The notes under the pieces: model-generated
Told to the model about the DNA's origin: nothing
The model's input: only the letters and a program-made list of their open reading frames with translations
Database searches by the model: none
Part shown: positions 11,186 to 39,477 of the stretch, in pieces
How positions within the stretch are numbered: position 1 is the first letter of the stretch
Layout of the letters: every line of letters begins with the position of its first letter
Translations under genes and position numbers: made by a program
From: Pampinifervens florentissimum
Lineage (GTDB): Bacteria > Aquificota > Aquificia > Aquificales > Aquificaceae
Reading direction: 5' to 3'
Assembly (NCBI RefSeq): GCF_011006175.1
Contig: NZ_CP048795.1
Coordinates: 1,168,491-1,232,490 of the forward strand
DNA: 64,000 nt

Positions 11186-11470
11186 TTAGAGGATATTGGA
11201 AGTTGGGTCTTCCCCCTCGGTGAGTATTTCTCTTTTGTAGTCCACAAGGTCGTCAAAAATGTAGATTATGAGGCTATCCTCTTTTTTGTTTATTACTTGC
11301 AATAACTCGCTTTTTAGTCTTTCAAGTTTTGATTTTGTTATGTTTCCCTCAAAGACGGACTTTTGCACGTGGTTTATGTATCTCTTTGCTATCTTCCGCA
11401 CTTTATTGAGCCTTTTCTGACCTTCTCTGTTTTCTGTAGATATATCATATACAAGGATTATCCACATCAA
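11186..11470 (-). CDS. cas2: CRISPR-associated endoribonuclease Cas2
   Basis: 94 aa, MWIILVYDIS...RLNKVRKIAKRY...QKSVFEG: classic Cas2. Overlaps the cas1 stop. Confidence 0.9.
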   Translation of the reverse strand: MMWIILVYDISTENREGQKRLNKVRKIAKRYINHVQKSVFEGNITKSKLERLKSELLQVINKKEDSLIIYIFDDLVDYKREILTEGEDPTSNIL

Positions 11471-12435: not shown

Positions 12436-12916
12436 AGCTCTTACAGTAAGGCTTTTCTTCTATAGGTGGTGGCTTTTCCAAAGAAAGTATATACCCTATA
12501 CCCTTGAGTGCGTCCTCTATAATAAACTCATCCTCTTTGCTAAGATAAACCTTTCTTATCTCTTTAGCCCTTGGATAGTGCAAAATGCCGTGAGAAACCT
12601 CAAGCCCTTTGCTTTTTAGGTAGTACATGTAATACTTAACTTGGAGAAGGTGAGACTCTTCTATGGCTCTTGAGTGCTTTACCTCGTGAACCACAAGCCC
12701 ATCATATGTTTTTATGAAATCCATCCTTACAGGCTCGTCGTAAAAACCTTCTTCTCTTTCCCTCTTAAAACTTTCTTCGTCAAGCAACTTTCCCAGAGCC
12801 ACGCTTTCAGAAAGATGCTCAAAACCTATGCCTTTAGAAAAAAGCCACAACTTTCTTTTACAAACCACATAGTAGGCTACCTGAGTGCCTTTGTATTTAA
12901 GCTCCCTAATCACCAT
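12407..12916 (-). CDS. cas4: Cas4 (RecB-like nuclease with Fe-S cluster)
   Basis: 169 aa. N-terminal Cys (YVVCKRK) plus C-terminal CKSCAYEEFC gives the 4-Cys cluster. RecB motif (VHEVKHS...KYYMYYL). Confidence 0.85.
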   Translation of the reverse strand: MVIRELKYKGTQVAYYVVCKRKLWLFSKGIGFEHLSESVALGKLLDEESFKREREEGFYDEPVRMDFIKTYDGLVVHEVKHSRAIEESHLLQVKYYMYYLKSKGLEVSHGILHYPRAKEIRKVYLSKEDEFIIEDALKGIGYILSLEKPPPIEEKPYCKSCAYEEFCYG

Positions 12917-15081: not shown

Positions 15082-15382
15082 CCTTTCCCTCCTTACCGTT
15101 CAAGCCAATAAGAAAAGCGTAGGCTATTCTTTCTAAGCCCTCCTCCTTTATAGCACTTAGAAACACACGCGGTATAGGCTTTTCCACTTCAAGGTATGCC
15201 CTTATTAGGTTTTGAGAAAAGTGGTCTATGTCCCTTCTTCTAACCGCCTCAAGCAAACGGTAAGAGAGGCTTTCTATCTTATTCTTTGCCCTATCTTCTC
15301 CAAGGCTTTCTTTGTAGCTTTGTGCTAACTTCTTACCCTCCACAAAAGCTGAGTTGATTTCTTTCTCCTTATTTGCTTGCAT
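15038..15382 (-). CDS. cas11: Predicted Cas11 small subunit, translated from an internal start inside cas8 (114 aa, in frame)
   Basis: On the minus strand, a perfect Shine-Dalgarno tttcaGGAGGTGttaaacATG precedes Met-355 of Cas8. The downstream 114 aa are helical and K/E-rich, as Cas11 proteins are. No separate cas11/csa5 gene exists in the locus. Confidence 0.45.
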   Translation of the reverse strand: MQANKEKEINSAFVEGKKLAQSYKESLGEDRAKNKIESLSYRLLEAVRRRDIDHFSQNLIRAYLEVEKPIPRVFLSAIKEEGLERIAYAFLIGLNGKEGKDESNTETEDSLGEE

Positions 15383-16444
15383 GTTTAACACCTCCTGAAA
15401 TTTTATTAGATATATAAGACTTTTATCCAAACCACTCTTTTGTTTAGAGCTTCTTTCACTTTTAAAAGCAGCCTCAGTTCCATATTTAATAAGCCTTACA
15501 TCATCATTAATTTTCTCCTTACCTTCATAATTACCTGCAAAAATATAACCTAACATTATCTTGTATAGCATATGATATAGGCTTTTACCATAGTAGACAT
15601 ACTTGAGGAATATATCAAAGAGAGGGTTAAGACTCTTCGGATATTCTTCTATGTATTCTCTGAGGGCGTGTGCCTGTATTTGGCTTAAGCTGAAGGTGTA
15701 GATATTGCTTTGTGCTTTACTTACAGTTTGTATCTCCACAACATAGATGTTTTCCAAAGACCAGCCAGCCTTATACTTCTCAATACTCTTTACCACTTCA
15801 ATAAGACTTTCTTTTATTATGTCCGCAGATATCCACTTGCGGGTCTCCAAGGCATTATTTATACCTATCATAGATCTTATATCATCCGGAAGATAAACAA
15901 AAATATACCTTCTTTCAATATCTGTAAAGCCAAAACAAGCAAAGTAAAGCAATGCCTCACATTCTTTACATAAAAACATAGTATTTACACCGTTGTAGAA
16001 AAGGTTTGGAAAAGTGTTTGGACTTGCAGAAAGCGGTGTGAAGTTAATCGCATCAAAAGTCTTGTAGAAATTTTCCTTTTTGTAAGAGTTTCTTTCCTTA
16101 CAGAAAAAGCATTTAGGGAAGTTATTTGAAGTATTAACAGAAAGTAATTTTTGAAAGAATTTTTCTATTTCTTTTTTATTATTCAATGATATCTTTGCTT
16201 TAGGATTAGGATTAGTTAGAGGTGAGTTGTTGTAAAAAACTTTAAGCCTTGAAATGTTAGCAGGGTATTTTAGAAGATAGTCCGCATACAGTTCTGGAAG
16301 TCTTTCCCATAGGTCTTGTGGAACTTCCAGGACACGCTCTTTGAAGTAAGGTAGTGGGTCAATTTTTGCATGATTTAAAACCTTAGCAAAACCTACCGCA
16401 CTGGAAGCCATAAGCCAGTTGTCTATCCGAAACCTTATAGCCAT
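15038..16444 (-). CDS. cas8: Cas8 large subunit (Cas8a/Cas8b-like) of the type I effector complex
   Basis: 468 aa, positioned between cas5 and cas3. Internal zinc-finger-like CFFCKERN...(37 aa)...CKECEALLYFAC. Helical C-terminal ~110 aa (see internal cas11 feature). Confidence 0.7.
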   Translation of the reverse strand: MAIRFRIDNWLMASSAVGFAKVLNHAKIDPLPYFKERVLEVPQDLWERLPELYADYLLKYPANISRLKVFYNNSPLTNPNPKAKISLNNKKEIEKFFQKLLSVNTSNNFPKCFFCKERNSYKKENFYKTFDAINFTPLSASPNTFPNLFYNGVNTMFLCKECEALLYFACFGFTDIERRYIFVYLPDDIRSMIGINNALETRKWISADIIKESLIEVVKSIEKYKAGWSLENIYVVEIQTVSKAQSNIYTFSLSQIQAHALREYIEEYPKSLNPLFDIFLKYVYYGKSLYHMLYKIMLGYIFAGNYEGKEKINDDVRLIKYGTEAAFKSERSSKQKSGLDKSLIYLIKFQEVLNMQANKEKEINSAFVEGKKLAQSYKESLGEDRAKNKIESLSYRLLEAVRRRDIDHFSQNLIRAYLEVEKPIPRVFLSAIKEEGLERIAYAFLIGLNGKEGKDESNTETEDSLGEE

Positions 16445-17112
16445 ACTGGAAGCCCTCCTTCTTTTTCCATCAGGATTTCACCCTCCTCTACTACAGTTCC
16501 CTTTTGGAGGTAGTAGACTTCCATCCATTCGTGCTCTCTTAAACTGCTGTTCCTTTTTAGAAAGGTTGGCAAAAGATAAAATATACCAGATGGGTATGTA
16601 GATAGGTTAATATACCTATCCTTTGGTAAAAAGGCGGACCATTCAAGTTTAAGCTCTTCCACCTTTCTCTCCTCAAGCTCTACAAAATCTATCCTTCGTA
16701 TCTTTACAGCATACTCTCCACCAGAGAGGTAAAGATAAGTCTGCGGCTTTTTCAAAGCCTCTGCAAACTCTCTCAAAAGCTCATATTCGCCGTATAGATG
16801 GACTATTAGCTCAAGCTGGTAAAGTATGGGGACTTCAATGGGAACAACTTCTAACTTCTTTTTATCCACATTATACTTCCTAAAACGCACATAATCTCTA
16901 AAAAGGGCTTGGTACCTGCCTTGTATGGATATTTGAAACTCTTCGCCTTGCCATTTTCTTCCTATGGCGGTATACAAAAGACCTATTATGGTAGAATAGG
17001 GTGGAAGCGGATAGGTCTCTATACCCTTTAAGGAAAAAGGGGCCTTGAAGATGCCAGTAGGCGTAAAGAGTTCAAACCTTAGGGCTTTCATCTTAGAGCA
17101 CTCCGTAAACAC
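16435..17112 (-). CDS. cas5: Cas5 (type I-A/I-B)
   Basis: 225 aa. N-terminal MKALRFELFTPTGIFKAPFSLKGIETYPLPPYSTIIGLL is typical of Cas5. Confidence 0.8.
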   Translation of the reverse strand: MFTECSKMKALRFELFTPTGIFKAPFSLKGIETYPLPPYSTIIGLLYTAIGRKWQGEEFQISIQGRYQALFRDYVRFRKYNVDKKKLEVVPIEVPILYQLELIVHLYGEYELLREFAEALKKPQTYLYLSGGEYAVKIRRIDFVELEERKVEELKLEWSAFLPKDRYINLSTYPSGIFYLLPTFLKRNSSLREHEWMEVYYLQKGTVVEEGEILMEKEGGLPVWL

Positions 17113-18079
17113 TCTTAACCTTTTGCCTTAGGCTCTCAAAGACCTCTGCTACACCTTTTGCACTTAGCTGGGTTCTTATATCCTCTTCGTTATGAAAGTG
17201 TCCAGAGGCAACTCCCACTAAAACCTCCTCACCTTCTGGGACAAGGTCTATGGCATCTCTTAGGGCGTTTATGTCAAGAATTAGCTTTCCTTCCTTTTCC
17301 ACAGCCTTTACCGCATCCATAAAAAAGGGATTTTTCACGCTAAAGACACCACCAACTACAAAAACTGGGGAGAGGTTTTCCCATCTGCCTCTTATCTGCC
17401 TGCTAAGGGTCTTTATAACCTCAAGAAGTTCCACCACTCTTTTTGCCTTTGCCTGAGAGTCTATGACCTCTTTTATTTCTCCCTCCTCTGTTTCCCACAC
17501 ACCCACACGGTCAAGGTCTACAGTAAGGGTGTAGATGTAGTGAGAGGTGTGTTGTTCGGAGTTTACTATCGCTTGGTCGCCTCTATCCTCTATGTGCCTT
17601 ATGTATCTGTTGTAGGCATCTATGTTGTTCATAAAGTCCATATCGGATTTGAAGGGACTTACGGAAAACATATAGCTGGTTTTGACTACGCTTACCCTCT
17701 TTACCGCATCACCCTTTGAGAGCTTTAGGGACTTCTTTTTACCATCCTCTTCCTTAGCAGGCTTTGTAAAAAGCCCACCAAAAAGGTCAAACTCTTCGTA
17801 GTCCTTTACCAAGTCCTCGCCAAACTTATCCACATCAAGAGTATCCTTAGAAGTGTGTCTTGCAATATACTCCTTTAGCTTTTCATCCAACAGCCTCCAG
17901 CCAAACCTTTCCCTTCCATGCCTTCTTATCTCATACTTTAAAGCCTTGTCAGAGGCATAGGTTAGCTGTGTGTTATCCGCAAGGGTAATCTTCTTAAGCA
18001 CAGACACATTACCTATACTCTCTCCATAGTTGAGAGAGCTTGCCCTGTGGGTTATTACCGTAAGGGTTAATCCAGCCAT
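17093..18079 (-). CDS. cas7: Cas7 backbone subunit (Csa2/Csh2, COG1857 family)
   Basis: 328 aa. THRASSLNYGESIGN motif and glycine-rich thumb are characteristic of Csa2-type Cas7. Confidence 0.85.
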   Translation of the reverse strand: MAGLTLTVITHRASSLNYGESIGNVSVLKKITLADNTQLTYASDKALKYEIRRHGRERFGWRLLDEKLKEYIARHTSKDTLDVDKFGEDLVKDYEEFDLFGGLFTKPAKEEDGKKKSLKLSKGDAVKRVSVVKTSYMFSVSPFKSDMDFMNNIDAYNRYIRHIEDRGDQAIVNSEQHTSHYIYTLTVDLDRVGVWETEEGEIKEVIDSQAKAKRVVELLEVIKTLSRQIRGRWENLSPVFVVGGVFSVKNPFFMDAVKAVEKEGKLILDINALRDAIDLVPEGEEVLVGVASGHFHNEEDIRTQLSAKGVAEVFESLRQKVKSVYGVL

Positions 18080-18158
18080 TTTTGACCTCCCTTAGTTGTT
18101 CTACTTACTTATGTTAACAGACACTTTTTACAGTTTCTGACAGTTTAAAATTTTCTCT

Positions 18159-18857
18159 ATGCGTTTTTTGGTGAAAATGGAAAGTCAAAGGGGAGAGAAG
18201 ATACCCATAGACTACAGACGCAGGCTCATATCTTTGATGAAGAGGGTTTTTGGAGTTAGGGAGTTTCTTGAAAATCCAGTAAGACCCTACACCTTTGCGG
18301 TATACCTCGGAAAGGGTGTGGTCTTTGAGGAAGAAACCATAAGCGGTGTAAAGTTTATAAACCTACGCATCTCCACAGGAGACCCAGTTTATGGGCTAAG
18401 GCTCTACAATGGGTTATCTTCTCTCAAGGGTAAAACCCACAAGATAGGAGATGCGGAGTTTGTTATAAAGGAGATTAAGTTAGAAAAGGAGGGAGATTGG
18501 TCAAAGGGCAGTTTCAAAAGCCTGTCTCCTGTGGTAGTGGAAAAGCCGGTATTTTCACAAGACAGCCCAAAAGCAAGATATCTAATTCCTATGGAAGAAG
18601 GCTTTGAAGATGCTCTTCTTGAGAACATACTTAGACGCTTTAGGGTTATAAAGGGCTATGAGCCAAAGATAGAAGAGTTTTCCTTTAGCTTTAAATACTT
18701 CAAGGAAGAGTTCATAAAGCACTATGGTGGGCACATTAGGGCTTTTCTTGGAAGGTTTCGTATAAACACAGATAACCCAGAAGTTTTGAGATTTGTCTAC
18801 CAATATGGGCTTGGTCTAAGGACGGGTCAAGGCTTTGGATACCTTGAGGTGGACTAA
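18159..18857 (+). CDS. cas6: Cas6 crRNA endoribonuclease
   Basis: 232 aa. C-terminal glycine-rich loop GLGLRTGQGFGYLE. Divergently transcribed from cas7 across an 80-bp gap. Confidence 0.8.
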   Translation: MRFLVKMESQRGEKIPIDYRRRLISLMKRVFGVREFLENPVRPYTFAVYLGKGVVFEEETISGVKFINLRISTGDPVYGLRLYNGLSSLKGKTHKIGDAEFVIKEIKLEKEGDWSKGSFKSLSPVVVEKPVFSQDSPKARYLIPMEEGFEDALLENILRRFRVIKGYEPKIEEFSFSFKYFKEEFIKHYGGHIRAFLGRFRINTDNPEVLRFVYQYGLGLRTGQGFGYLEVD

Positions 18858-25948: not shown

Positions 25949-27475
25949 ATGTTCTGTCGTGTAAAAAGTGGTGGGATTCTGGGAATAGAGGGTTTTGAAG
26001 TAGATGTAGAGGTAGATATTGCCAACGGATTGCCACAGTTTTCTATCGTAGGTCTTGGAGACAAAGCCATAAACGAAGCACGGGAAAGAGTAAGGTCTGC
26101 ACTCAAAAACATTGGCTTTCAACTACCTGTAAAAAGGATAACTGTAAACCTCTCACCCTCACATCTCAAAAAGCAAGGAACACACTATGACCTACCTATA
26201 GCCTTGGGTATCCTCAAGCTCTCAACAGGTATAGATTTTCCCGAAAACCATGTGGTTCTTGGTGAGCTGTCTCTTGATGGTAAGATAAACCCAGTTAAGG
26301 GTGTCCTGCCGATAGTTCTCTCTCTAAGAGATCTTGGCTACAAAAGGTTTATTGTTCCAGAAGGCAATGCAAAGGAGGCCGGTCTTGTCAAAGATGTAGA
26401 AGTTTATGGTTTTGAGAGCCTAAGGGATGTGTTGGATTTTTTCAGTGGGAGCCTTTCAAAAAAGCCAGTGGAGGTGAACTTAGAGGAGGTCTTTGAACAA
26501 AACCTTTCCTTTGATGTGGACTTTAGCGAGGTTTATGGTCAGCATCAGGCAAAAAGGGCTATGGAAATATCCGCAGCAGGATTCCATCCTATTCTCTTAG
26601 TGGGTCCGCCTGGTGCTGGCAAAAGCATGCTTGCCAAAAGGCTCATTACCATTATGCCACCCTTGACCTTTGAGGAAGCAGTGGAGATAACGCGTATATA
26701 CAGCGTTGCAGGTCTCTTGAGCGAGGACAAACCCCTTATAACAAAAAGACCCTTCAGAAACCCTCTAACAAACGCCTCAGATTCTGCTCTTGTAGGTGGT
26801 GGCACAGTGCCACAGCCCGGTGAAATATCCTTAGCACACAGGGGAGTGCTTTTCCTTGATGAGTTTCCAGAATTCAGCAGAAAGGCTATAGAGTCTCTAA
26901 GACAGCCCTTGGAAGATGGAAAGGTCACCGTGTCAAGGGTTGGTGGTAGGATAAGCTTTCCTGCGGAGTTTTTGCTGGTAGTGGCTATGAACCCCTGTGC
27001 CTGTGGCAACTACGGAAACCCATACAAAGCCTGTGTATGCACTCCCATGCAGTTAAAAGCATACCAGTCAAGGATATCTGGTCCCATAATGGATAGGATA
27101 GACCTAAAGGTTTGGGTATATCCAGTGGAAAAAGAAGACCTGCTAAAGATGTCCTCAGGCGAAAGCTCAGCACAGATTAGACAAAGGGTTATGAGAGCTG
27201 TTGAAATTCAAAGGGAGCGTTTTAAAAACAGTCCAACAAAATACAATTCACGCATGACAAACGACCAAGTTAAGAAATACTGCGAGATGACCCAAGAAGC
27301 TAAATCTCTACTTCAAAGTGCCATAGATAGACTAAACCTAACTGGCAGAGGCTATATGAAGGCACTGAAGGTGGCGAGAACCATAGCAGACCTTGAAGGA
27401 GAAGAAAAAATAGCCAGCCATCACATAGCAGAAGCTCTCCAGTATAGGATAAACGAAAAAGCACCCACTCTATGA
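25949..27475 (+). CDS. comM: Mg-chelatase-like AAA+ ATPase YifB/ComM
   Basis: N-terminal Lon-like domain, Walker A GPPGAGKSMLAKRL, sensor and arginine-finger regions. 508 aa. Confidence 0.9.
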   Translation: MFCRVKSGGILGIEGFEVDVEVDIANGLPQFSIVGLGDKAINEARERVRSALKNIGFQLPVKRITVNLSPSHLKKQGTHYDLPIALGILKLSTGIDFPENHVVLGELSLDGKINPVKGVLPIVLSLRDLGYKRFIVPEGNAKEAGLVKDVEVYGFESLRDVLDFFSGSLSKKPVEVNLEEVFEQNLSFDVDFSEVYGQHQAKRAMEISAAGFHPILLVGPPGAGKSMLAKRLITIMPPLTFEEAVEITRIYSVAGLLSEDKPLITKRPFRNPLTNASDSALVGGGTVPQPGEISLAHRGVLFLDEFPEFSRKAIESLRQPLEDGKVTVSRVGGRISFPAEFLLVVAMNPCACGNYGNPYKACVCTPMQLKAYQSRISGPIMDRIDLKVWVYPVEKEDLLKMSSGESSAQIRQRVMRAVEIQRERFKNSPTKYNSRMTNDQVKKYCEMTQEAKSLLQSAIDRLNLTGRGYMKALKVARTIADLEGEEKIASHHIAEALQYRINEKAPTL

Positions 27476-29162: not shown

Positions 29163-29375
29163 CTAAATATATATCTCTTGTGTAAGCTCGCCCTGATAGT
29201 TTAGCCTATCAAGAATAGCTTTTCCTCTCAGGGATTTGGCAGGTATTTCAAAGACCTTTCTTGAGGAGTAGATTTTTATAATATCCTCTGTAACTTCAAT
29301 CTTTTCGGGAGGCTTGCCATCTTCAAGCACCACTATATTCTTGTATGATAAATCTTCCTTGTTGTAGACTTTCAT
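29163..29375 (-). CDS. Hypothetical 70-aa protein
   Basis: ORF only. Lies between the VWA gene and bioB on the same strand. Confidence 0.3.
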   Translation of the reverse strand: MKVYNKEDLSYKNIVVLEDGKPPEKIEVTEDIIKIYSSRKVFEIPAKSLRGKAILDRLNYQGELTQEIYI

Positions 29376-29422: not shown

Positions 29423-29785
29423 GTGATGAGAGTCAGATTTAGAGTGGCGGTCTACAGCAAAGAAGGTAAAAGACTTGGTAGGGAAGACTTTATAGCGTTT
29501 CGTGAGCCTCTTTATGTGGGCATAAGGTATGTGGTAGAGTTTAAATACCTTGAGGCAACCAAGTGGCTCATGCTTGCAAAGGATTGTCAAGAGAAGTATC
29601 TGCTTTTGGCATTGCTTAACTTCTCTCTTGGTCAAGAAACGCAGGCTCGTGAGTTTTTGCAAGAGGCATTAAAGCATGAAAGGGCTACTGATTACCTTTT
29701 TGTGATAGAAAAGCCAGAAGAGGGTCTGAAGGTGGCTATTGAAAGGATAGAAGCCTCCTTGCCTGATTTTCTATTATCCTTGTAA
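29423..29785 (+). CDS. Hypothetical 120-aa helical protein
   Basis: ORF with protein-like composition. Convergent with the VWA gene and overlaps its 3' end by 50 nt. Confidence 0.3.
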   Translation: MMRVRFRVAVYSKEGKRLGREDFIAFREPLYVGIRYVVEFKYLEATKWLMLAKDCQEKYLLLALLNFSLGQETQAREFLQEALKHERATDYLFVIEKPEEGLKVAIERIEASLPDFLLSL

Positions 29786-31580
29786 AGGCTGTAGGAAGTT
29801 CGCTTATGCTCTTTATCCTTATGGCACTTTTCTCAAAGTAATAGTCTGTGTAATTTCTTTCTGTGCCAACTCCTATGCCTATGATTGGTATTCTTGACTT
29901 TATCTGTGCTATAAGACTCTTTAGCTCTTGACCTTTTAGACCTCTTGTAGGCTCTCCGTCAGAGAAAACTACAATGCATCCCCTAATGTGATTTTTCAAG
30001 CAGAAGGTCTGAAGGTCTTCATAAGAATATATAAGGGCTTTTTCAAGGTTTGTCCCACCGCCCAGCAGGTTAAAAAGCTCTATTATTTTCCACTTTACAG
30101 CCTTGTAGTCCTCTGAAAACGCCTTTAGTCTAAAAACCCTGTCTGAAAACACATCTATGGAGAAGGACATTTTAAGGCTTTCTATAACCTCTGAAAAGAG
30201 CAAAAGAGCCTTTATGGCGTTTTGTATTTTGTCCTCTCTTTTCATAGAAGTGGAGATATCTATGAGGAGCTTAAAGGCTAACTCTTTTCTTACTGGTATG
30301 TGCCTTCTCATGTATATTCTTCCTCTTCCAAGAGGTGCTTCCACGCTTAGGCTTTTAGTATCAATCCTTCTACCATAGAAGTGTTTTCCGGTCCAGCCTT
30401 CCTCTTCTTGTGGCATGAGTTTGACCAGTTTTCTCTTTAAAGCGTCTATGTGTGGCAAAATATCAGAGAGCATTCTTTTGTAGACCATAAAGTCTTCTTT
30501 TCCAAGACCGTAAGCCTTCTCATACAGTCTATCCTCTTCTGTTTTTTCTCTTTTGCTTCTTCCAAAGCCAGACTGAGAAGAGGAAGAAGACTGCTCTTCC
30601 CATCCCTTTATAATAAAGCTCAAAAAGCCTCTGTGTTCTATATCAACCTCAAGGGTTTTTGGCAAAAAGTGTCTTATAAACTCCACATCCCTCTCTATCA
30701 AGTTTATGTAAGACATCTGCTTTAGGTAGTCTCGCATCCAGTCTGGGACTGCCTTTAAACTTTTGAGTATTTCTTTTCTGTCCGCTTCTGATATATCCAC
30801 CGCCCTTTTGTCCTTGTTTTGCACTATTATCTCTTGAAGATGTTCTGGTAATTTCTTTAGAAGGTCTGTCATTATCCTGCCTCTGTGGGCATCCACTCTG
30901 GTCTTTCCTCTTGCCTCTTCCAAAAGCAGGTCAACATAGTTTATGTCTTGTGCCTTTTCTATATGGCTCATGTATCTTCCAAAGAGGTCTTCCATAATTA
31001 TGTCATAGGCATCCCTGCTTTTTGCATTTAGATACTCTTGGAGGAATTTCTGTGTATCTTTTTGATAGTTCCCTTCACCAAGCCAGTTTTCCAGAAGAGA
31101 AAGAGCAAAAAGGTGATGCGGATAGTAGGTTTCTAAGTTATTCAATATGTTTTTGTAATGCTTTTTTACAGTTTGCAAGCTATCTGGACGGCTTTTTATA
31201 AGCCTTTCGTCTGTTTTTATAGACTCCAAAACCGCATAAAGCACTAAAAAGGACGTAGGCGTAAAGCCAAATTTATAGAATTCCCTTTGACCAAGCCTCC
31301 AAAGGTAAAGGTCAGTGCTAAAAAGATACTCTATTTCATGCCTTATGGTGTTTATGGCTTCCTCTTCTGGTTTGTTAGAAACTTCCTGAAGATAGAAGGC
31401 AATGCCAGAGGGTCGCTTTACTGGTTCTGGCACATCTTCTACTTCCCCCTTTGCCCACATTTCGGTGAGAGGTAGAAACTTAGGGTCATAGCCAGCTCCC
31501 CAGCCCTCGTAGCTTGCCTGAACCTCTATATCATATTCGTCAGATAGGAGCTTCTCTATTACCTTCCAACGCTCTTTCAC
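29736..31580 (-). CDS. Large VWA-domain protein with MIDAS motif (NorD/CobT/CbbO-like architecture), coupled to encapsulin
   Basis: 614 aa. C-terminal VWA: DISTSM (DxSxS), GGGTNLEKAL, VVFSDGEPT. Mid-protein Ser-rich linker EEQSSSSSQSGFG. The GTG start overlaps the encapsulin stop (GTGA). Confidence 0.7.
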   Translation of the reverse strand: MKERWKVIEKLLSDEYDIEVQASYEGWGAGYDPKFLPLTEMWAKGEVEDVPEPVKRPSGIAFYLQEVSNKPEEEAINTIRHEIEYLFSTDLYLWRLGQREFYKFGFTPTSFLVLYAVLESIKTDERLIKSRPDSLQTVKKHYKNILNNLETYYPHHLFALSLLENWLGEGNYQKDTQKFLQEYLNAKSRDAYDIIMEDLFGRYMSHIEKAQDINYVDLLLEEARGKTRVDAHRGRIMTDLLKKLPEHLQEIIVQNKDKRAVDISEADRKEILKSLKAVPDWMRDYLKQMSYINLIERDVEFIRHFLPKTLEVDIEHRGFLSFIIKGWEEQSSSSSQSGFGRSKREKTEEDRLYEKAYGLGKEDFMVYKRMLSDILPHIDALKRKLVKLMPQEEEGWTGKHFYGRRIDTKSLSVEAPLGRGRIYMRRHIPVRKELAFKLLIDISTSMKREDKIQNAIKALLLFSEVIESLKMSFSIDVFSDRVFRLKAFSEDYKAVKWKIIELFNLLGGGTNLEKALIYSYEDLQTFCLKNHIRGCIVVFSDGEPTRGLKGQELKSLIAQIKSRIPIIGIGVGTERNYTDYYFEKSAIRIKSISELPTAFTRIIENQARRLLSFQ

Positions 31581-32425
31581 TTTTCGCCTATTACCATTAT
31601 GGCACCGGGTCTCTTTATACGCGGTGCTATAACTTCCATAACCCTAAAGTGGTGCACCATGTTGGTAGATTCCACGTAGGCAAGGCTAAAGTCAAGCCCA
31701 AGGACAAGGTCCATATTCTGCGGTCCTACAGACAGGAGAATAGCCTTTCCTTCTGGGACTATAGGTGTATGGTAGACATCGGAAACCAGCTTTTTAATCT
31801 GCTCAATCTCAAGAAGTCCTGTGTTGTGATAGAGCCTATTGAGCTTAAAGTAGTCCCTTGGGTTTAGAAGAAGATAGTATGGTCCATAAAAGCCCTTTTC
31901 TGAGAGCTTTGATATACCAAGGGATACATCGTTAAAGGCGTTGCCAAGCACATCCCAGTCGCTCATGGACATGCTCTGCCTTCCTTCCACCGTAAGAAAG
32001 CCCTCTATTTCCATTTTTGGATTGCCGTGAATTATGAGGGTATCCTCCGCCACTGCAGTGGCAAAGGCTGCAGCAGATGCCTGAGAGGTATCAATTGGCA
32101 AGTTAAATTGTCTGAAGTATTCAAGGTCTCTCCAAGTTATGGAGAAAGGCTTGAATATGGTGGGAAGGGTTATGTATTTTCTTCTTCCTGTTCTCACAGG
32201 CTCGCAGGCTTCGCTCTCTTCTCCCGGTCTTACTTCACATACTCCCGGTTCTACACCAAGGTAAACATCGTAGGCTATTACCTGATGCCCAACGCCTATT
32301 GGTCCTATAACTGGCATAAACCTTCTGCATACAAGGGTCTTTTTAGCCACATCAATAACCGCACTTTCTAATTGCTCCCATTCTTCAAAGGTAAGTGGTG
32401 ATTGCTCTCTTCCTAAAAAGTCCAT
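31577..32425 (-). CDS. Family-1 encapsulin nanocompartment shell protein (HK97 fold)
   Basis: 282 aa, collinear with T. maritima encapsulin. MDFLGREQSPLTFEEWEQL aligns to MEFLKRSFAPLTEKQWQEI, GPYYLLLNPRDYFKL to GPYTLVINTDRWINFL, and the C-terminal LVLGLDFSLAYVESTNMVHHFRV block also aligns. Strong RBS AGGAGGTG. Confidence 0.85.
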   Translation of the reverse strand: MDFLGREQSPLTFEEWEQLESAVIDVAKKTLVCRRFMPVIGPIGVGHQVIAYDVYLGVEPGVCEVRPGEESEACEPVRTGRRKYITLPTIFKPFSITWRDLEYFRQFNLPIDTSQASAAAFATAVAEDTLIIHGNPKMEIEGFLTVEGRQSMSMSDWDVLGNAFNDVSLGISKLSEKGFYGPYYLLLNPRDYFKLNRLYHNTGLLEIEQIKKLVSDVYHTPIVPEGKAILLSVGPQNMDLVLGLDFSLAYVESTNMVHHFRVMEVIAPRIKRPGAIMVIGEK

Positions 32426-32441
32426 TTAACCACCTCCTAAC

Positions 32442-33500
32442 TTAAATTATACGCCAATATTCTTCAAAGGCTATCCATGTTTTTGGGATTATTTCCTTTA
32501 GGTTGTCCCATCTTTTCATGTGTTTTTTCCTCTTTTCTGATGCCCTCCATAGGGTGCTACCAAAGACCTCTTGAGCTTCCTCTTCAAACTCTTCTGGAGA
32601 ATCCTCACATAATGCTTTACCTGCCATATCCCCCGATATGACCGCGTTGGCTATTCCACCGCCAGTTATGGGATGACAAAAGCCACCCGCATCCCCCACA
32701 AGCAGAACCCTCTTTCTTACCAAAGGCAGTAGCCCATCCGCAGGTATCCATCCACCCGTTCTTTTTATTATTTGTTTTTCTACTATACCCTCTGCAACCA
32801 CCTCTTCTACGAACCTTTTGAGGCTTTCCATCACATTAACTCCATAATCTGGGTCAACCCCCACTCCCACGTTGGCGAGCCTTCCCTTTGGAAAGACCCA
32901 GCCGTAGCCTCCTGGGATGTAGTCTCTAAAGTATATAAGAAGGTCTTCAAGCTCTTTTGTCAGTTTCATTGTTATTTGTGCAGTGGTGAGGAATGTCTGG
33001 GTTTTTTCACCAGTGAGCCTTGCCACCTTTGACCTTGGTCCGTCCGCACCCACTACAAAGTCCGCCTTTACTGGAAACTTTTCTCTCGTGTCAATCTCTT
33101 CAAGCCATGCAAAACCATCTTCAAAGCCCAAAAATTGTGTTCTAAGCATATATACCGCACCCTGCTCCTGTGCCAGCTTGGCTATCTGAGCGTCAAAGAC
33201 CTCTCTGTTTAATACAAAGCCCTCCGACCACATACTTACCACCTCTCCCCAAGGTGTAAAATGAACCATATTCTTTACCCTCTGAGCTATAGCCTCCTGT
33301 GGAAAGAACTCCTTAAACTGATGGTATAGCTGAATAGGGACAAACTCCGCACATTGCACAGGCTTTCCTATACTTCTTTTTATGTCAACTACCAAAACCC
33401 TTTTACCAGCCTTTGCAAGCCTATAGGCACAGGAAGAACCTGCAGGACCTCCTCCAACTATTAAGACATCAAACTTTTTCATGCCCTTTATTGAAAACAC
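32442..33500 (-). CDS. FAD-dependent oxidoreductase, geranylgeranyl reductase family
   Basis: VLIVGGGPAGSSCAYRLAKAG dinucleotide fold, GDAGGF motif. 352 aa. Confidence 0.75.
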   Translation of the reverse strand: MFSIKGMKKFDVLIVGGGPAGSSCAYRLAKAGKRVLVVDIKRSIGKPVQCAEFVPIQLYHQFKEFFPQEAIAQRVKNMVHFTPWGEVVSMWSEGFVLNREVFDAQIAKLAQEQGAVYMLRTQFLGFEDGFAWLEEIDTREKFPVKADFVVGADGPRSKVARLTGEKTQTFLTTAQITMKLTKELEDLLIYFRDYIPGGYGWVFPKGRLANVGVGVDPDYGVNVMESLKRFVEEVVAEGIVEKQIIKRTGGWIPADGLLPLVRKRVLLVGDAGGFCHPITGGGIANAVISGDMAGKALCEDSPEEFEEEAQEVFGSTLWRASEKRKKHMKRWDNLKEIIPKTWIAFEEYWRII

Positions 33501-33750
33501 TTGAAGGCTTAAAGCCTATACTATACCTTTCCTCCACATACATCTCTATGCCAGTCTTAGGGTTCTTTATAAACCTTCCGCTCAGCCTCCTTATTTTAAA
33601 AATGCCAAATCCTCTAAGTTCAAGCCTACCCTTTTCAAGAACAAGGTTAACTATCTCTTCAAAAAAACTGTCCACAAAGAGCTTAGCGTCCGCCCTGTTT
33701 TTTATATTAAACTCCTTCCTAAGGCTTTCTATTAGGTCTGTTTTTTTCAT
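33469..33750 (-). CDS. hup: HU/IHF-family nucleoid-associated DNA-binding protein
   Basis: GFGIFKIRR…KNPKTGIEM…FKPS arm motif. Start taken at MKKTDLIESL. Confidence 0.8.
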   Translation of the reverse strand: MKKTDLIESLRKEFNIKNRADAKLFVDSFFEEIVNLVLEKGRLELRGFGIFKIRRLSGRFIKNPKTGIEMYVEERYSIGFKPSSVFNKGHEKV

Positions 33751-34177
33751 CCTTTTCCTCCACATAGAAGGTTCTTACCCGTGAATTTTTACTAACCGCA
33801 ACCGCCCTATCTTCTTTTCTGTAGTAAACTATCTCATCCGCCTCAACAAAATTCTGCCCTTCTTCCACCTTTGCCTTTCCTATCAGGGTTATAACCTCAT
33901 CCTTAAGGTCGTAGACCATTTTGTTGGCGGAGGCTTTCCTATTTCCTTCCGTGTATCTCGCATTTCCCTCTGCTTCTATGAGCTTTGCTTTTTTGCTCTC
34001 GTCCAAGTGTATAACTACCCTGTTTGCAGTAAGAAGTGCATTTCCTCTTGTGATTCTCACATTTCCCGAATACACCACCTTATCCTTCTCATAGGTGAGA
34101 TTGTCCGCTTCGCCTACTATGGGCTGTGCAAACATAAGCGTAGGTATTAAGACCAAAAGAATTACAACCTTTCTCAT
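33719..34177 (-). CDS. lptA: LPS transport periplasmic protein LptA (OstA-N fold)
   Basis: Signal peptide, beta-jellyroll repeat pattern. Operon position after lptC/kdsC. Confidence 0.7.
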   Translation of the reverse strand: MRKVVILLVLIPTLMFAQPIVGEADNLTYEKDKVVYSGNVRITRGNALLTANRVVIHLDESKKAKLIEAEGNARYTEGNRKASANKMVYDLKDEVITLIGKAKVEEGQNFVEADEIVYYRKEDRAVAVSKNSRVRTFYVEEKDEKNRPNRKP

Positions 34178-34665
34178 CTTATGTCCGTCCTTGCCCTATT
34201 AATTATAACCTTTAGAGGTTTTAGGGTTATCTCAAAGCCCTTACCCCTTACGAGACTTTCTCCCTGCAATATTTGGATGTCCCCTTCTCCCCATATTTTA
34301 CCCTCCTTTAGGTTTATGTATGCGTTCTGTGTCTTTGCGGTAATGTCTTCAGACTTAACCTCCACCCCTTCTGTGAGCTTTCCTTCGCCTGTAGACCTGT
34401 CTATATAAGCCTGAACAGCTCTTATGTTAGCCTCCTTTGAAAAGAGCTCCGCCTCGTAGAGCTTAACATCTTTGCCAACCACCTCAAGGGTCTTACCCCT
34501 TATAGTCCACTCAATACCAGTCTTACTATAGGCTTTTATGGTTACACCTTCAAGTAGGCTTACCATCTCTTCTTGTCCACCGCTCATTGCAAAGCTGTCT
34601 ACATACATCTTGAGAACGGAAGCAAGAAGGATTATCAGTATACTAAGGAGCAAGCTCCTAAGCAT
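34174..34665 (-). CDS. lptC: LPS export protein LptC
   Basis: N-terminal TM anchor plus ~140-aa beta-rich domain. Sits between kdsC and lptA. Confidence 0.6.
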   Translation of the reverse strand: MLRSLLLSILIILLASVLKMYVDSFAMSGGQEEMVSLLEGVTIKAYSKTGIEWTIRGKTLEVVGKDVKLYEAELFSKEANIRAVQAYIDRSTGEGKLTEGVEVKSEDITAKTQNAYINLKEGKIWGEGDIQILQGESLVRGKGFEITLKPLKVIINRARTDIR

Positions 34666-35179
34666 AGTATTGGCTTATGACCTCTTCCCATTGTCCTCTT
34701 AGCTTTAAGATAAACTCTATGGCATCCCTTACCGCTCCATGCCCACCCTTTGAGTTTGTTATGTATAGGGCATGTTCTTTTATCTCTTCTGGTGCATCCA
34801 CAACCGTCATGGGAAAGCCCACCCTTCTAAGAATTGGAAGGTCCACATAGTCATCACCAAGAAAGGCGATCTCTTCCAAGCTAAGAGAAAGCCTTTTCAT
34901 CACATCTTCAAGGATTGGAAGTTTCTGGTTATAGCCTAAGTGCACTTCATCCACTTTTAACTCCTTTAACCTGTTTATAAGTGCCTTGCTTTTTCTTCCA
35001 GATATTACACCTATCCTTATGCCAGCCCTTTGAGCCAGCTTTATACCAAGCCCGTCCCTCACATTAAAGACCTTTATCTCTTCACCCCTTGAGGTATAGT
35101 AGAGCCTTCCGTCTGTAAGCACACCATCCACGTCAAGTAGAAGCAGTTTTATCTTTAAAGCTCTATCCCTTAAATCCAT
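34658..35179 (-). CDS. kdsC: 3-deoxy-D-manno-octulosonate 8-phosphate phosphatase
   Basis: LLLLDVDGVLTDGRLYY HAD motif I. 173 aa. Confidence 0.85.
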   Translation of the reverse strand: MDLRDRALKIKLLLLDVDGVLTDGRLYYTSRGEEIKVFNVRDGLGIKLAQRAGIRIGVISGRKSKALINRLKELKVDEVHLGYNQKLPILEDVMKRLSLSLEEIAFLGDDYVDLPILRRVGFPMTVVDAPEEIKEHALYITNSKGGHGAVRDAIEFILKLRGQWEEVISQYYA

Positions 35180-35180
35180 C

Positions 35181-36278
35181 CTATGCTTGAGCGTAGCTCT
35201 CTTTCAACTTCTTTATCCTCCAGAGAGCTTTGCTGTCTTCAGGTGTGATAAGGCTGTAGGCTTTTCCATAAGTGCCTATCCTTCCAGTCCTACCTATGCG
35301 GTGTATGTATACCTCTGGGTCTTCTGGGATATGGTAGTTTATCACAAGGCTCACACCCTTTATGTCAAGCCCTCTTGAGGCTACATCTGTAGCCACTACT
35401 ATCTTAACCTTGCCATCTCTGAAAAGTCTTAGAGAGTTTTCCCTCTGCCTTTGTGTCATATCTCCATGAAGGGAGACCACATTAAAGCCCTTTCTTTTCA
35501 GCTCTTGCGTTATATCCTTTGCATCCTTTTTTGTCTTTACAAAGACTATAACCTTTTCAAGGACATGTTCCCTCAGTATCTTTTCAAGCTCAGACATCTT
35601 TTGTCCAGAGGAACTCAGCTTTATAAGCCTTTCCTCTATCTTTGGCTTTAGTTCTTCTGTTATAACCTTAACAAACTTGTAGTCCTTTTTTAGGTGTTTC
35701 TTGGCAAGCTCTTCTACCTCTCTTGGTATGGTAGCAGAAAAGAGAAAGGTCTGTCTTTCCTTTGGAAGCTGAGCTATTATCCACTCAATGTCTTCTATAA
35801 AGCCCATATCAAGCATTCTATCCGCCTCATCTAAAACGAAGTATTTTAGGCTTTCAAAGTTAAAAAGGCCTCTCATGGTAAGGTCCTTTATCCTCCCAGG
35901 CGTGCCTACTACGATGTTTGGTGTTATCTTCCATAGAAGCTCAAGGTCCTTCTGGACTGGTGTCCCACCGTAGAAGCTAAAGACCTTTAGTCCCTTATAC
36001 TTAGAAAGCTGATATAACTGTTCTTTTACTTGAAGAGCAAGCTCTCTTGTAGGTGTCATTATAAGGGCGGTTGTTCCTTCTTCCTTTTCGCTTCCTTCAA
36101 TTATAGGTATACCAAAGGCGGCGGTTTTCCCTGTTCCTGTTGCCGCCTGACCCATTATGTCGTAGCCCTTAAGGGCTAAGGGTATGGCTTCCTTCTGAAT
36201 TGGAGTGGGTTTTTCAAAGCCCATGTCCTTGAGTGCCTTACGCAAGGGAATACTAAGCTGTGAGAAATCAAAGTCCAT
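35181..36278 (-). CDS. DEAD-box ATP-dependent RNA helicase
   Basis: Q motif, AATGTGKTAAF, VLDEADRMLDMGF, SAT, HRIGRTGR. Confidence 0.9.
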   Translation of the reverse strand: MDFDFSQLSIPLRKALKDMGFEKPTPIQKEAIPLALKGYDIMGQAATGTGKTAAFGIPIIEGSEKEEGTTALIMTPTRELALQVKEQLYQLSKYKGLKVFSFYGGTPVQKDLELLWKITPNIVVGTPGRIKDLTMRGLFNFESLKYFVLDEADRMLDMGFIEDIEWIIAQLPKERQTFLFSATIPREVEELAKKHLKKDYKFVKVITEELKPKIEERLIKLSSSGQKMSELEKILREHVLEKVIVFVKTKKDAKDITQELKRKGFNVVSLHGDMTQRQRENSLRLFRDGKVKIVVATDVASRGLDIKGVSLVINYHIPEDPEVYIHRIGRTGRIGTYGKAYSLITPEDSKALWRIKKLKESYAQA

Positions 36279-36441: not shown

Positions 36442-39400
36442 ATGGAGCTCACAAGGCGAAGTTTTCTAAAAGTTGCAGGCGTTTCTGCGGGTGCTACCCT
36501 TACTGGTGGGCTCGGTTTTGACCTAAAGCCTGCCATGGCGAGGGTTAGAGACCTTAAGATTTCCAACGCAAAGGCTGTAAAAAGCACATGTCCCTATTGT
36601 TCTGTTTCCTGCGGGGTAATAATCTACAGCCTTACCGATGGTGCTATGAACGTAAAGCCAAGGGTCATACATGTGGAGGGCAACCCAGATGACCCAGTTA
36701 ACAGAGGAACATTGTGTCCAAAAGGTGCGACACTTAGAGATTTTATAAATTCACCTCAGCGTCTTAAAAAGCCCCTTTATAGACCACCTGGGGCTAGAGA
36801 TTGGCAGGAGATAAGCTGGGAAGAAGCTCTAGACAGGATAGCTCGTCTAATAAAGCATACGAGGGACAGAACTTTTATAGAAAAGGATGAACAAGGAAGA
36901 ACCGTCAACAGATGTGAAAGCATAGCTTGGGTTGAAGGTAGCACCATAGCTAACGAAGAGGGCTACCTGTGGGTAAAGATGGGGGTTGCCCTCGGGCTTG
37001 TTGCACGGGAAACCCAGGCGCGAATATGACACGCACCAACGGTGGCCAGTTTGGCCCCAAGATTTGGAAGAGGTGCGATGACCAATGGATGGAACGACAT
37101 AAAGAACGCAGACCTAATACTGGTTATGGGAGGAAATCCTGCGGAGAACCATCCCTGTGGCTTCAAATGGGCGATAAAAGCGCGTCAAGAAAGGGGAGCC
37201 AAGATAATTTGCATAGACCCAAGGTTCAACAGAACCGCTGCGGTTTCTGATATATTCCTGCAGATAAGACCTGGGTCTGACATAGCCTTTATGGGTGGTC
37301 TTATAAACTATGTGCTTCAGAACAAGAAATACAACGAAGAGTATGTAAAGCACTTTACAAACGCTGCATACATAGTAAAAGACACTTACAGCTTTGACCC
37401 ACAGACAGGTCTATTCTCGGGTTATGACCCAGAGAAAAGAAAGTATGACCAGTCCCTTTGGGGATACGAGCTTGACGAGAAGGGTATGGTAAAGAAGGAT
37501 ATGACCCTTCAGCATCCAAGATGTGTCTTTCAGCTTATGAAGGAGTTCTACTCAAGGTATACGCCAGAAGTAGTAGAAAAGCTTACAGGCATCCCAAAGG
37601 ACAAGTTCCTTGAGGTGGCAAAGCTCATAGCGGAAACCTCTGCACCAGACAAGTCAATGACACACCTCTACGCTCTCGGATGGACACATCACTCCACAGG
37701 AACACAGCTCATAGGTTCTATGGCTATACTTCAGCTCCTTCTTGGAAACATAGGGGTTCCTGGCGGTGGTGTAAACGCTCTAAGAGGTCATTCAAATGTG
37801 CAGGGCATGACCGACCTAGCAGGAGAAGGAAGATTTCTACCAGGATATCTAAAACCACCAATGGCAAATCAGCAGACTCTTAGGGACCACATAGAAGCAA
37901 ACACTCCAAAGGCTGTGGACACTTCAATGAATTACTGGTCTAACTATGGTAAATTCTATGTAAGCCTTCTCAAAGCATGGTTCGGAGACGCTGCAACCCC
38001 AGAGAACGAGTTCGCATACCACTATCTGCCAAAGCTGGAAAAGGTCATTTCCATGGACGAGATACTAGACAGGATGTATAGGGGTAAGATGGAAGGCTTT
38101 GTTTCCGTGGGTATGAACATACTTGCAAGCAATCCAAACGTCAAGAAGATAGCGGAAGGACTTGGAAAGCTAAAGTGGATGGTGGTTATCGATGTCTTTG
38201 AGACGGAGATGGCAGGCTTTTGGAAGTATGTGGATGACCCATCAAAGGTTCAAACAGAGGTATTCCTCTTACCATCCGCTCTGTTTGCGGAGAAAGAGGG
38301 GTCTTATACCAACAGTGGAAGGGTTATAAAGTGGAAATACAAGGCGGTAGACCCACCAGGGGATGCAAAGGACGAGCTATGGATAGCGGGTCAGCTGTGG
38401 ATGAGGCTCAAAAACCTTTACAAGAAGGAAGGTGGTAAGTTCCCTGACCCTATACTAAACCTCACATGGAACTTCCAAAACCCCTACTATCCAACTGCCG
38501 AAGAGGTCTTGAGAGAAATGAACGGCTACGCCCTTGCGGACCTTACAGATGACAAGGGTAATGTGGTGGTTAAAAAGGGTGAAAGGCTACCCGGTTTTGG
38601 TGTGCTAAGGGATGATGGGACAACAGCCTGTGGCATGTGGCTCTACTCTGGTGTTTTCCCTCAATCGGGCAACAGGGCAAAGTCTACAGACCTCTCCGAC
38701 CCATCAGGTTTGGGAATCTATCCGGGCTACGGCTACAGCTGGCCAGCCAACAGAAGGATACTCTACAACAGGGCATCCGCAGACCCAAGCGGTAAGCCTT
38801 GGAGCGAAAAGAAGAAATACATCTGGTGGAACGAGGCGGAAGGTAAATGGGTTGGCTACGACGTGCCAGACATAAAACCAGACCTCACACCCGATTATGG
38901 ACCCTTCATAATGCTTCCAGAAGGAAGAGGTAGGCTCTTCTGTGCACCTCTTGTGGATGGACCCTTCCCAGAACACTACGAACCCTTTGAGTCTCCAGTA
39001 GAGAACATCTTGCATCCAAAGACACCTCATAACCCAGTGGTTAAGATATACAAGTCAGACCTTGACCTACTTGGAAAACCCGATGAATTTCCATATGTGG
39101 CGACCACCTATAGGGTCGTTGAACACTTCCACTATTGGACAAAACATATCTACGGCACCTCTGTGCTTGTTCCCAACATGTTTATTGAGATACCAGAGGA
39201 GCTTGCAAAGGAATTGGGTGTAAAGGAGGGTGACAAGGTAAGGGTTGTTACCGCAAGAGGTTCTGCGGAAGGTTATGTCCTTCCCACTAAGAGGATAAAG
39301 CCTCTCACAATAAACGGTAAAAAGGTATATACGGTAGGTATCCCTATACACTGGGGTAATGAGGGTGTAGTTAAAGGTGCTCTTGCCAACATGATAACGC

Positions 39401-39477
39401 CCTTTGTGTGGGACCCTAACTCTCAAACTCCAGAGTTCAAGGGTTTCCTTTGCAGGGTTGAAAAGGTAAAAGCATAA
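36442..39477 (+). CDS. fdnG: Formate dehydrogenase catalytic (alpha) subunit, Tat-exported selenoprotein with in-frame UGA = Sec at 37027-37029
   Basis: RRSFLK twin-arginine signal. N-terminal 4Cys Fe-S motif (CPYCSVSCG). Both ORF-track pieces share one frame and join as …ARI-U-HAPTVASLAPRFGRGAMTNGWNDIKNADL, the canonical FdnG/FdhF selenocysteine motif. Mo-bisPGD domains follow. Confidence 0.9.
37030..37080 (+). promoter_or_regulatory. Predicted bacterial SECIS element directly 3' of the UGA
   Basis: Position immediately after the Sec codon. Potential stem-loop GGCCA-GTT-TGGCC, extendable. Not folded computationally. Confidence 0.4.

Follow-up and report, generated by a model that had tools for sequence, protein, structure and literature searches.

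Overlapping encapsulin and VWA-protein genes in Pampinifervens florentissimum: a clade-restricted adjacency read as genome compaction

The EncC and EncD cargo proteins of Myxococcus xanthus are encoded away from the shell gene of their encapsulin. Andreas and Giessen (2021, PMC8346489) have reported 'Bfr' tandem-ferritin cargos in a few Aquificae, and in the same census the encapsulin orthologue of Thermocrinis minervae is placed in the class 'Minor', with no cargo. Among proteins with a von Willebrand factor A (VWA) domain, those of the NorD class are metal-insertion chaperones: a finger with a GRxLL/I motif protrudes from the NorD VWA domain and enters the AAA+ pore, and in NorQD a hydrophobic C-terminus docks on the ATPase while the motor stretches the linker to the N-domain (PMC13036017). 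Here we analyzed 64,000 nt of the genome of Pampinifervens florentissimum (contig NZ_CP048795.1, positions 1,168,491 to 1,232,490; this whole stretch is called the window), in which the gene of a predicted family-1 encapsulin shell overlaps the gene of a 614-aa VWA protein with a MIDAS (a metal-ion-dependent adhesion site). A sequence-only reading of this DNA had suggested that the VWA protein may be a new cargo, an accessory or a loading factor of the shell. Our results point to another explanation, to which we give a probability of about 65%: the two proteins would have independent functions and would be co-transcribed through inherited gene order in a compact genome, with the cargo of the shell and the ATPase of the VWA protein both encoded at distal sites.

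The gene pair, the parts of the VWA protein and the gene run that contains them are as follows.

31577..32425, minus strand: predicted family-1 encapsulin shell gene, 282 aa, EncA-like large-shell subclass (NF041155, PF04454)
31577..31580, minus strand: GTGA junction, where the encapsulin stop overlaps the GTG start of the VWA gene (direct sequence reading)
29736..31580, minus strand: VWA/MIDAS protein, 614 aa, of an Aquificales-restricted family (Pfam VWA_2/VWA)
30597..31580, minus strand: N-terminal domain of the VWA protein, residues 1-328, a small sheet and a helical bundle, with near-invariant H81-E82-x-x-Y85
30546..30596, minus strand: Ser-rich disordered linker of the VWA protein, residues 329-345 (predicted local distance difference test score, pLDDT, < 50)
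30300..30389, minus strand: candidate 'finger' region before the VWA domain, residues ~398-427, G403-R-R-I-D...R419-G420-R-I-Y-x-R425-R426 (HMMER alignment to midasin)
29739..30293, minus strand: VWA domain with complete MIDAS (D441, S443, S445, T510, D541) and a hydrophobic C-terminus, ...RRLLSFQ (alignment, Foldseek)
29736..36278, minus strand: gap-free same-strand run of eight unrelated genes, namely DEAD helicase, KdsC-like, LptC, LptA, HU, geranylgeranyl-reductase (GGR)-family flavoprotein, encapsulin and VWA protein (open reading frame (ORF) list, Pfam)

We surveyed the neighborhoods of both genes. The VWA-centred survey covered 59 loci, with one genome per species and up to 6 kb available, and used tblastn and ORF clustering; the encapsulin-centred survey covered 80 metagenomic loci with up to 8 kb available. 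An encapsulin gene adjoins the VWA gene in 21 of the 59 loci; all 21 come from one clade, and 20 of them have the wider gene block in common. The full arrangement (DEAD helicase-KdsC-LptC-LptA-HU-GGR-encapsulin-VWA, followed by a convergent 120-aa ORF) was found in 18 loci, and three loci (L011, L023 and L045) keep the encapsulin-VWA pair without the full block, its upstream or far-downstream part being absent. No encapsulin is adjacent in the other 38 loci, which belong to Thermocrinis, Aquifex/Hydrogenivirga, Hydrogenobaculum-like and other Hydrogenobacter lineages, although on several of their contigs the upstream sequence does not reach far enough to rule one out. In these unlinked loci the VWA gene is directly preceded by PsiE, HisG, a PMT-type glycosyltransferase gene or a small ORF, which often overlaps the VWA start by 4-8 nt too. 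The HisG-VWA and PsiE-VWA arrangements recur in still more divergent VWA relatives.

A similar distribution was found from the encapsulin side. A VWA gene adjoins the encapsulin gene in 6 of the 80 metagenomic loci, all of them with an encapsulin that shares at least 86% identity with that of the window, and no VWA gene lies within the available flank in 34 other Aquificaceae-type encapsulin loci (61-81% identity). The complete genomes of Aquifex aeolicus VF5, Hydrogenobacter thermophilus TK-6, Thermocrinis albus and T. minervae all have encapsulin orthologues (59-80% identical), with no VWA gene within 7 kb of the encapsulin and no shared neighbor. The A. aeolicus encapsulin has a PriA-like gene beside it, that of H. 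thermophilus a flavoprotein, that of T. albus a divergent 183-aa ORF and that of T. minervae GlmS. We considered the 678-aa gene upstream of the A. aeolicus encapsulin as a counterpart of the VWA gene and rejected it, as tblastn gave no match to the VWA protein; its product is zinc-ribbon-like with a Cys cluster, and it is PriA-like by eye only, with no Pfam match on record.

Both gene families therefore occur across Aquificaceae and are adjacent in one indel-defined subclade only. An 8-residue deletion near residue 170 was found in every linked locus, including the divergent L045 and L056, and in one unlinked Thermocrinis group, and the long form without this deletion is present in the Hydrogenobaculum-like outgroup, Aquifex and Hydrogenobacter. 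Because the deletion is common to all linked loci, we consider the linkage to be confined to one subclade. Conservation of the adjacency wherever a shell orthologue occurs, on which a functional coupling would have leaned, was not observed: synteny is seen only in the subclade that keeps the block of unrelated genes, and elsewhere (in Thermocrinis, Hydrogenobacter, Aquifex and Hydrogenobaculum-type lineages) the two genes persist apart with other neighbors. Since they co-travel in only one branch of the Aquificaceae, which live in hot springs, we read the pairing as a product of genome compaction and not as a shell-cargo system.

The stop-start overlap noticed in the sequence-only reading was read directly in the DNA. 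The junction letters are ...GAA AAG TGA, in which GTG-A is the VWA start, giving a 4-nt overlap; the VWA start position is confirmed because all VWA orthologues begin with MKERWK. This overlap is present in every encapsulin-linked locus. We counted the same-strand junctions of the window and found exactly 4 nt of overlap at 16 of 61 and any overlap at 36 of 61, including pairs of plainly unrelated genes. Thus, the encapsulin-VWA overlap is of the commonest junction type and is no more than chance expectation in a compact genome. It supports co-transcription and is silent on shared function. A promoter and terminator scan of the gene run gave no signal above shuffled background.

Nearest to the window locus are Aquificaceae metagenome-assembled genomes (MAGs), which have 'Candidatus Pampinifervens' and Hydrogenobacter sp. 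Uz 6-8 as close relatives. An exact copy of the Pampinifervens VWA protein is encoded on a 67.9-kb contig in the assembly of sequencing run SRR34531401.

The 282-aa ORF matched both family-1 shell models, NCBIfam NF041155 ('family 1 encapsulin nanocompartment shell protein') at 266.7 bits, well above its cut-off of 100, and Linocin_M18 (PF04454) at E 4.8e-68, which agrees with its earlier assignment as a family-1 encapsulin. Its best solved relative is M. xanthus EncA (4pt2), with 229 bits in an end-to-end alignment over residues 2-278. The T=4 shell of Quasibacillus thermotolerans (6nj8) gave 187 bits and the Thermotoga maritima encapsulin only ~52 bits. Judged by these scores, the Aquificaceae encapsulin belongs to the large-shell, iron-storage subclass and is closest to EncA. 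In place of an extended N-arm the protein is predicted to have an N-terminal helix, the EncA alignment starting at residue 2; in family-1 shells such a helix contributes to the pocket that holds the targeting peptide. Within this helix P10 is invariant and L11 and W16 are nearly invariant in 40 sequences from Aquificaceae and from relatives that use targeting peptides. Across the genera of Aquificaceae the encapsulins are 59-90% identical and full length, with invariant core residues, which argues for purifying selection.

The dedicated cargo of a family-1 encapsulin has a targeting peptide at its C- or N-terminus, and its gene usually adjoins that of the shell; no such gene was found in the local neighborhoods searched, either in the window or in the Aquificaceae loci. 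A targeting-peptide motif search on the ORF termini of the window (77 ORFs, the VWA protein and its neighbors among them) and of the Aquificaceae loci returned nothing but one spurious 82-aa ORF, so the statement that no canonical cargo is nearby holds. In 40 Aquificaceae-type metagenomic loci, no targeting-peptide-like terminus was found up to 4 kb from the encapsulin, and a six-frame scan of the surveyed loci, including the four complete-genome loci, also found none. Encapsulin relatives outside Aquificae with 40-48% identity repeatedly have an adjacent targeting-peptide protein. One type is a 320-355-aa tandem ferritin-like protein encoded directly upstream, with a C-terminal LTVGSL (TVGSL invariant); the other is a protein of ~190 aa with the targeting peptide GLTVGSLLG at its N-terminus. 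A profile built from six tandem-ferritin cargos gave 633 matches, and the best 120 of them were all Chloroflexi/Anaerolineae-named, with none from Aquificaceae. In the literature we found no description of Aquificaceae encapsulins beyond the census entry.

As none of the Aquificaceae loci examined has an adjacent LTVGSL cargo, the cargo is probably encoded elsewhere in the genome. Because the residues of the N-terminal helix are kept in comparison with relatives that use targeting peptides, we suggest that loading through such a peptide is retained and that the cargo is distal.

The ~190-198-aa proteins with the N-terminal GLTVGSLLG were seen at L066 5322-5918 (minus strand), L120 31-597 and L130 2772-3368. 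The single copy that was scanned, that of L066, had no Pfam match, and these proteins may be an undescribed family-1 cargo type.

Pfam VWA_2/VWA matches on the 614-aa protein are confined to residues 438-576, and no NCBIfam model matched it. The MIDAS residues D441-x-S443-x-S445, T510 and D541 are invariant in 63 orthologues, so the motif is intact as first noted. The AlphaFold2 model (pLDDT 83.5) shows, in order, the N-domain (residues ~1-328), the Ser-rich linker (329-345), two helices, low-confidence loops (402-421) and the VWA domain, which extends to the C-terminus. The linker had been noticed earlier too; its sequence varies among orthologues. The top Foldseek matches of the VWA domain are the MIDAS domain of Rea1/midasin (6qta, E 3e-8) and the NorD VWA domain in NorQD (9qhe, E 4e-8). 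The family profile also matches the midasin MIDAS domain at E 8.5e-10, and this match takes in a pre-VWA segment, G-K/R-R-L/I-N...R-x-R-I-[WY]-x-R-R. There HMMER pairs the candidate finger with midasin GKRLNIKKI...KRDKIWMRR; conservation is seen at G403-R-R-I, R419, G420, R425 and R426, pLDDT is low in the loops, and the match to the published NorD motif is partial. The protein had been called NorD/CobT-like. The NorD part of this name is upheld by the Foldseek match, and the CobT identity was rejected, no NCBIfam model (the CobT equivalog model is TIGR01651) having matched; a precomputed CobT_C match exists in only one orthologue. On this evidence the VWA protein most likely belongs, as a member specific to Aquificales, with the MIDAS adaptors of the midasin/NorD/CbbO class. 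Its N-domain has no detectable homology to the N-domain of NorD or CbbO. This domain is possibly zincin-derived, the zincin motif being HExxH as against H81-E82-x-x-Y85 here.

We found 101 full-length relatives of the VWA protein in an index of 5.8 billion proteins, and their source-given names are all Aquificaceae or Aquificota except for one 'Acidobacteria' MAG. A profile of the N-domain matched only 68 cluster representatives among 1.84 billion proteins. Beyond Aquificales, the N-domain relatives are proteins of 720-995 aa with a C-terminal CobT_C/VWA domain. Two of them were looked up (L067 and L068), and in both the next gene on the same strand encodes an AAA_5 ATPase of 1,077-1,141 aa. 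The VWA partners that were scanned in these two modules had no NCBIfam match, and none of the distant relatives of the VWA family is near an encapsulin. Thus, the VWA protein defines a small, Aquificales-restricted family with an uncharacterised N-domain, and this family appears to have lost the gene adjacency with an AAA_5 ATPase that is seen beside its two distant relatives.

The two AAA_5 ATPases lie at L067 2640-6065 and L068 7451-10684. In that of L068 the AAA_5 domain is near the C-terminus (residues ~797-930), and the ~790 upstream residues are unannotated.

In accordance with the sequence-only reading, no MoxR-type P-loop protein was found in the window, and none was found near any VWA orthologue (>60 loci). 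In the neighborhoods examined, the Aquificales VWA gene is solitary, without an adjacent MoxR/AAA_5 ATPase. The P-loop proteins of the window are PilT-like, Cmk, a ComM/YifB-type Mg-chelatase-family AAA+, an ABC ATPase and MinD. We considered the ComM/YifB-type AAA+ (25949-27475, plus strand) as the missing partner and rejected it, since it is on the opposite strand and has Lon-like and Mg-chelatase-type domains. It lies 2.3 kb from the VWA gene and is near a VWA gene only in the linked clade, as a member of the conserved block. Its domains are a Lon-like N-domain, Mg_chelatase and Mg_chelatase_C, and it is the only helix-2-insert AAA+ in the window.

Under the explanation that we prefer, the encapsulin would be a family-1 shell of the usual, EncA-like kind, an 'orphan' as far as Aquificaceae are concerned, and would load its cargo through a classical LTVGSL-type targeting peptide. 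The cargo would most plausibly be a ferritin-like iron-storage protein, as in the nearest relatives, and would be encoded distally, as EncC and EncD are. The VWA protein may use its MIDAS site to grip a client protein at an acidic residue; its candidate finger and its hydrophobic C-terminus may dock on a distally encoded MoxR/AAA_5-type ATPase, and by this motor the linker that joins the N-domain to the VWA domain would be pulled. The two genes would be co-transcribed in this lineage through their adjacency and 4-nt overlap, which would themselves reflect an inherited gene order in a very compact genome and not a shell-cargo or shell-accessory relation.

Several observations weigh against this explanation. 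A neighbor-joining tree places the linked loci L045 and L056 deep, so the linkage could be old. This deep position is probably a long-branch effect, and an ancestral linkage of the whole family is weakened by the derived deletion that L045 and L056 share with the crown clade; it is further weakened by the recurrence of the PsiE-VWA and HisG-VWA arrangements in very divergent lineages. Moreover, no locus of the clade has a broken encapsulin-VWA junction, and yet breakpoints flank the pair, immediately upstream of the encapsulin gene in L011 and L023 and downstream of the VWA gene in L003 and L014/15/57. We do not regard this as significant, because other junctions of the block are almost equally stable. 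A genuine encapsulin lies 5.6 kb from the VWA gene in one Hydrogenobaculum-like contig, and no such nearby encapsulin is present in its three sister loci. As both families are found throughout Aquificaceae, phyletic co-occurrence is possible. The distal cargo and the distal ATPase that we postulate were not found in the loci searched, and the best 120 of the 633 tandem-ferritin profile matches include no Aquificaceae copy. Finally, as Deckert et al. reportedly noted in 1998, the genomes of Aquificaceae scatter functionally linked genes. The loss of adjacency is therefore weaker evidence here than in other phyla.

In an alternative, the VWA protein would be a true encapsulin accessory that works with a distal AAA+ motor in remodelling the shell or its content (iron insertion or release, or help with cargo loading). 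Its MIDAS would bind an acidic residue of the shell, and the adjacency in one clade would be a relic of a functional link. An overlapping pair that is never separated within its clade would be consistent with this, as would the very divergent members of the linked set (45% VWA identity), the 5.6-kb spacing in the Hydrogenobaculum-like contig and the presence of both families across Aquificaceae. It would also fit that NorD-class proteins insert metals (PMC13036017) and that the shell is assigned to the iron-storage subclass. However, the genes are apart in most lineages, each with unrelated neighbors; the conserved adjacency belongs to a conserved block of unrelated genes; two distant VWA-family relatives have AAA_5 ATPases as partners, with no encapsulin close to any such relative; and we found no paper that links encapsulins with VWA or MoxR proteins. 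We therefore hold an accessory role to be rather unlikely. A stronger form of the same idea is also doubtful, namely a shell without any classical cargo that is serviced by a NorD-class VWA protein. Driven by a distal AAA+ motor, this protein would dock on the shell with its MIDAS and load or unload metal or remodel the shell, as a new type of accessory system; in that case the overlapping pair would preserve an original operon that was scattered in other Aquificaceae.

It is also conceivable, with a similarly low probability, that the Aquificaceae encapsulin has lost its cargo altogether and is now an empty or small-molecule-binding shell, or is decaying. The 40 Aquificaceae-type metagenomic loci and four complete genomes without an adjacent targeting-peptide cargo would be explained in this way, and so would the lack of Aquificaceae among the best cargo-profile matches. 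However, the purifying selection suggested by the highly conserved shell speaks against this, distal cargo genes are known for M. xanthus, its closest characterised relative, and the profile evidence concerns the best 120 of 633 matches.

The gene in the usual cargo position deserves a separate comment.

32442..33500, minus strand: GGR-family flavin adenine dinucleotide (FAD) flavoprotein in the usual cargo-gene position, without a targeting peptide (TIGR02032, 218 bits)

Its tail, ...FEEYWRII, contains no targeting-peptide motif, as the earlier description of a GGR-type flavoprotein without such a tail had stated. A GGR-family flavoprotein stands directly upstream of the encapsulin in the window clade and in the H. 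thermophilus TK-6 group (L062 5881-6996). The two are only 30% identical, which may reflect either independent recruitment of paralogues or fast divergence. Its position in both groups (16-22-nt gap in the window clade, 4-nt gap in the H. thermophilus group) could suggest that this flavoprotein works together with the shell, for instance by donating electrons to a shell that binds flavin or stores iron. We consider this very unlikely, since the two flavoproteins are probably different paralogues and neither has a targeting peptide; the encapsulin genes of T. albus, T. minervae and A. aeolicus have no such gene upstream, and neither do those of L011 and L023 in the linked clade itself.

Least credible of all is the VWA protein as a cargo of a new class, carried within the shell. 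In favor of this, the two genes are co-transcribed in this lineage, there is no other cargo gene close by, and a protein of 71 kDa would probably fit a T=3/T=4 shell. Against it, neither the termini nor the Ser-rich linker contain a targeting-peptide motif, and both termini are modelled as helices (residues 2-16 and 592-612). Orthologues without an encapsulin beside them keep the C-terminal ENQxRRLL just as well, relatives of the shell use classical LTVGSL peptides, and the adjacency is not conserved.

Two small ORFs follow the VWA gene.

29423..29785, plus strand: conserved 120-aa ORF that converges on the VWA gene, with a 50-nt overlap at the 3' end of that gene (family HMM)

The 120-aa ORF has no Pfam match. 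The family HMM finds it at the same position in all encapsulin-linked loci, and it is also beside the VWA gene in L031 and in the very divergent L070 and L071, all without an encapsulin; it accompanies the VWA gene more widely than the encapsulin does. A 70-aa ORF (29163-29375, minus strand), also without a Pfam match, lies between the VWA gene and bioB and is kept in the linked clade. A homologue with 43% identity is found ~6 kb downstream of the A. aeolicus VF5 encapsulin (L061 14033-14266).

Elsewhere in the window, we observed a type I-B-like cas set (10468-10628 and 11186-18857), in which only Cas6 is on the plus strand; Cas2, Cas1, Cas4, Cas3, a CXXC_CXXC large subunit, Cas5 and Cas7/DevR are all on the minus strand. 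A minimal CRISPR array beside the set consists of three 29-nt repeats, identical to each other (GTTTCAACTCCACACGGTGGATTAGCAAC), and two spacers. The GC content goes down to 0.38-0.41 across the cas/CRISPR stretch. A formate-dehydrogenase-type molybdopterin oxidoreductase (36442-39477, plus strand) is split into ORFs of 195 aa and 811 aa by a single in-frame TGA at 37030-37032 (...ETQARI*HAPTVASL...), which is a candidate selenocysteine codon. The gene calling of the public contig likewise splits this gene in two.

The value of these results is mainly corrective: in very compact genomes, a 4-nt overlap together with synteny at the level of a clade is not evidence of shared function. For all their strong conservation, the encapsulins of Aquificaceae have no adjacent cargo that could be identified. 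Should the pairing be functional after all, it would provide the first case of a MoxR/VWA-class remodelling protein as an accessory of an encapsulin, and a handle on iron entry and exit in large encapsulins.

Among known systems, the M. xanthus EncA compartment (4pt2, 7s20; cargos EncB/C/D) is similar to the Aquificaceae shell in being a family-1 shell with an N-terminal helix, and its distal EncC and EncD resemble the distal cargo that we propose. Unlike for EncA, no targeting-peptide cargo was found for the Aquificaceae shell in the loci searched, and the large size and iron-storage role of this shell are predictions. In the tandem-ferritin 'Bfr-like' family-1 systems (PMC8346489), the encapsulin relatives with 40-48% identity carry an adjacent LTVGSL double ferritin, whereas no such gene is beside any of the Aquificaceae-family encapsulins examined.

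For the VWA protein, NorD (9qhe, 9qh6; PMC13036017) has the same order of parts, with an N-domain, a flexible linker, a G-R-x-L/I finger (a candidate one in the Aquificales protein), the VWA domain and a hydrophobic C-terminus, and the DxSxS-T-D MIDAS is present in both. Unlike NorD, the Aquificales protein has an N-domain that is not detectably related, a VWA domain with only ~20% identity, no adjacent NorQ/MoxR gene in >60 loci and no nor genes nearby. The MIDAS domain of midasin/Rea1 (6qt8, 6qta, 8ql1) is its best match both by sequence profile and by Foldseek. However, midasin is a eukaryotic giant with the MIDAS fused to its own AAA+ ring, and the Aquificales protein is free-standing, with a different N-domain and no ATPase in cis. 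In the bacterial two-gene modules L067 and L068, a CobT_C/VWA domain again forms the C-terminal part, and the N-domain, very rare elsewhere, is the one shared with the Aquificales protein (E 1e-19 to 1e-5); the modules differ in having a longer linker and an AAA_5 ATPase (~1,100 aa) encoded directly after the VWA gene, whereas the Aquificales VWA proteins are solitary.

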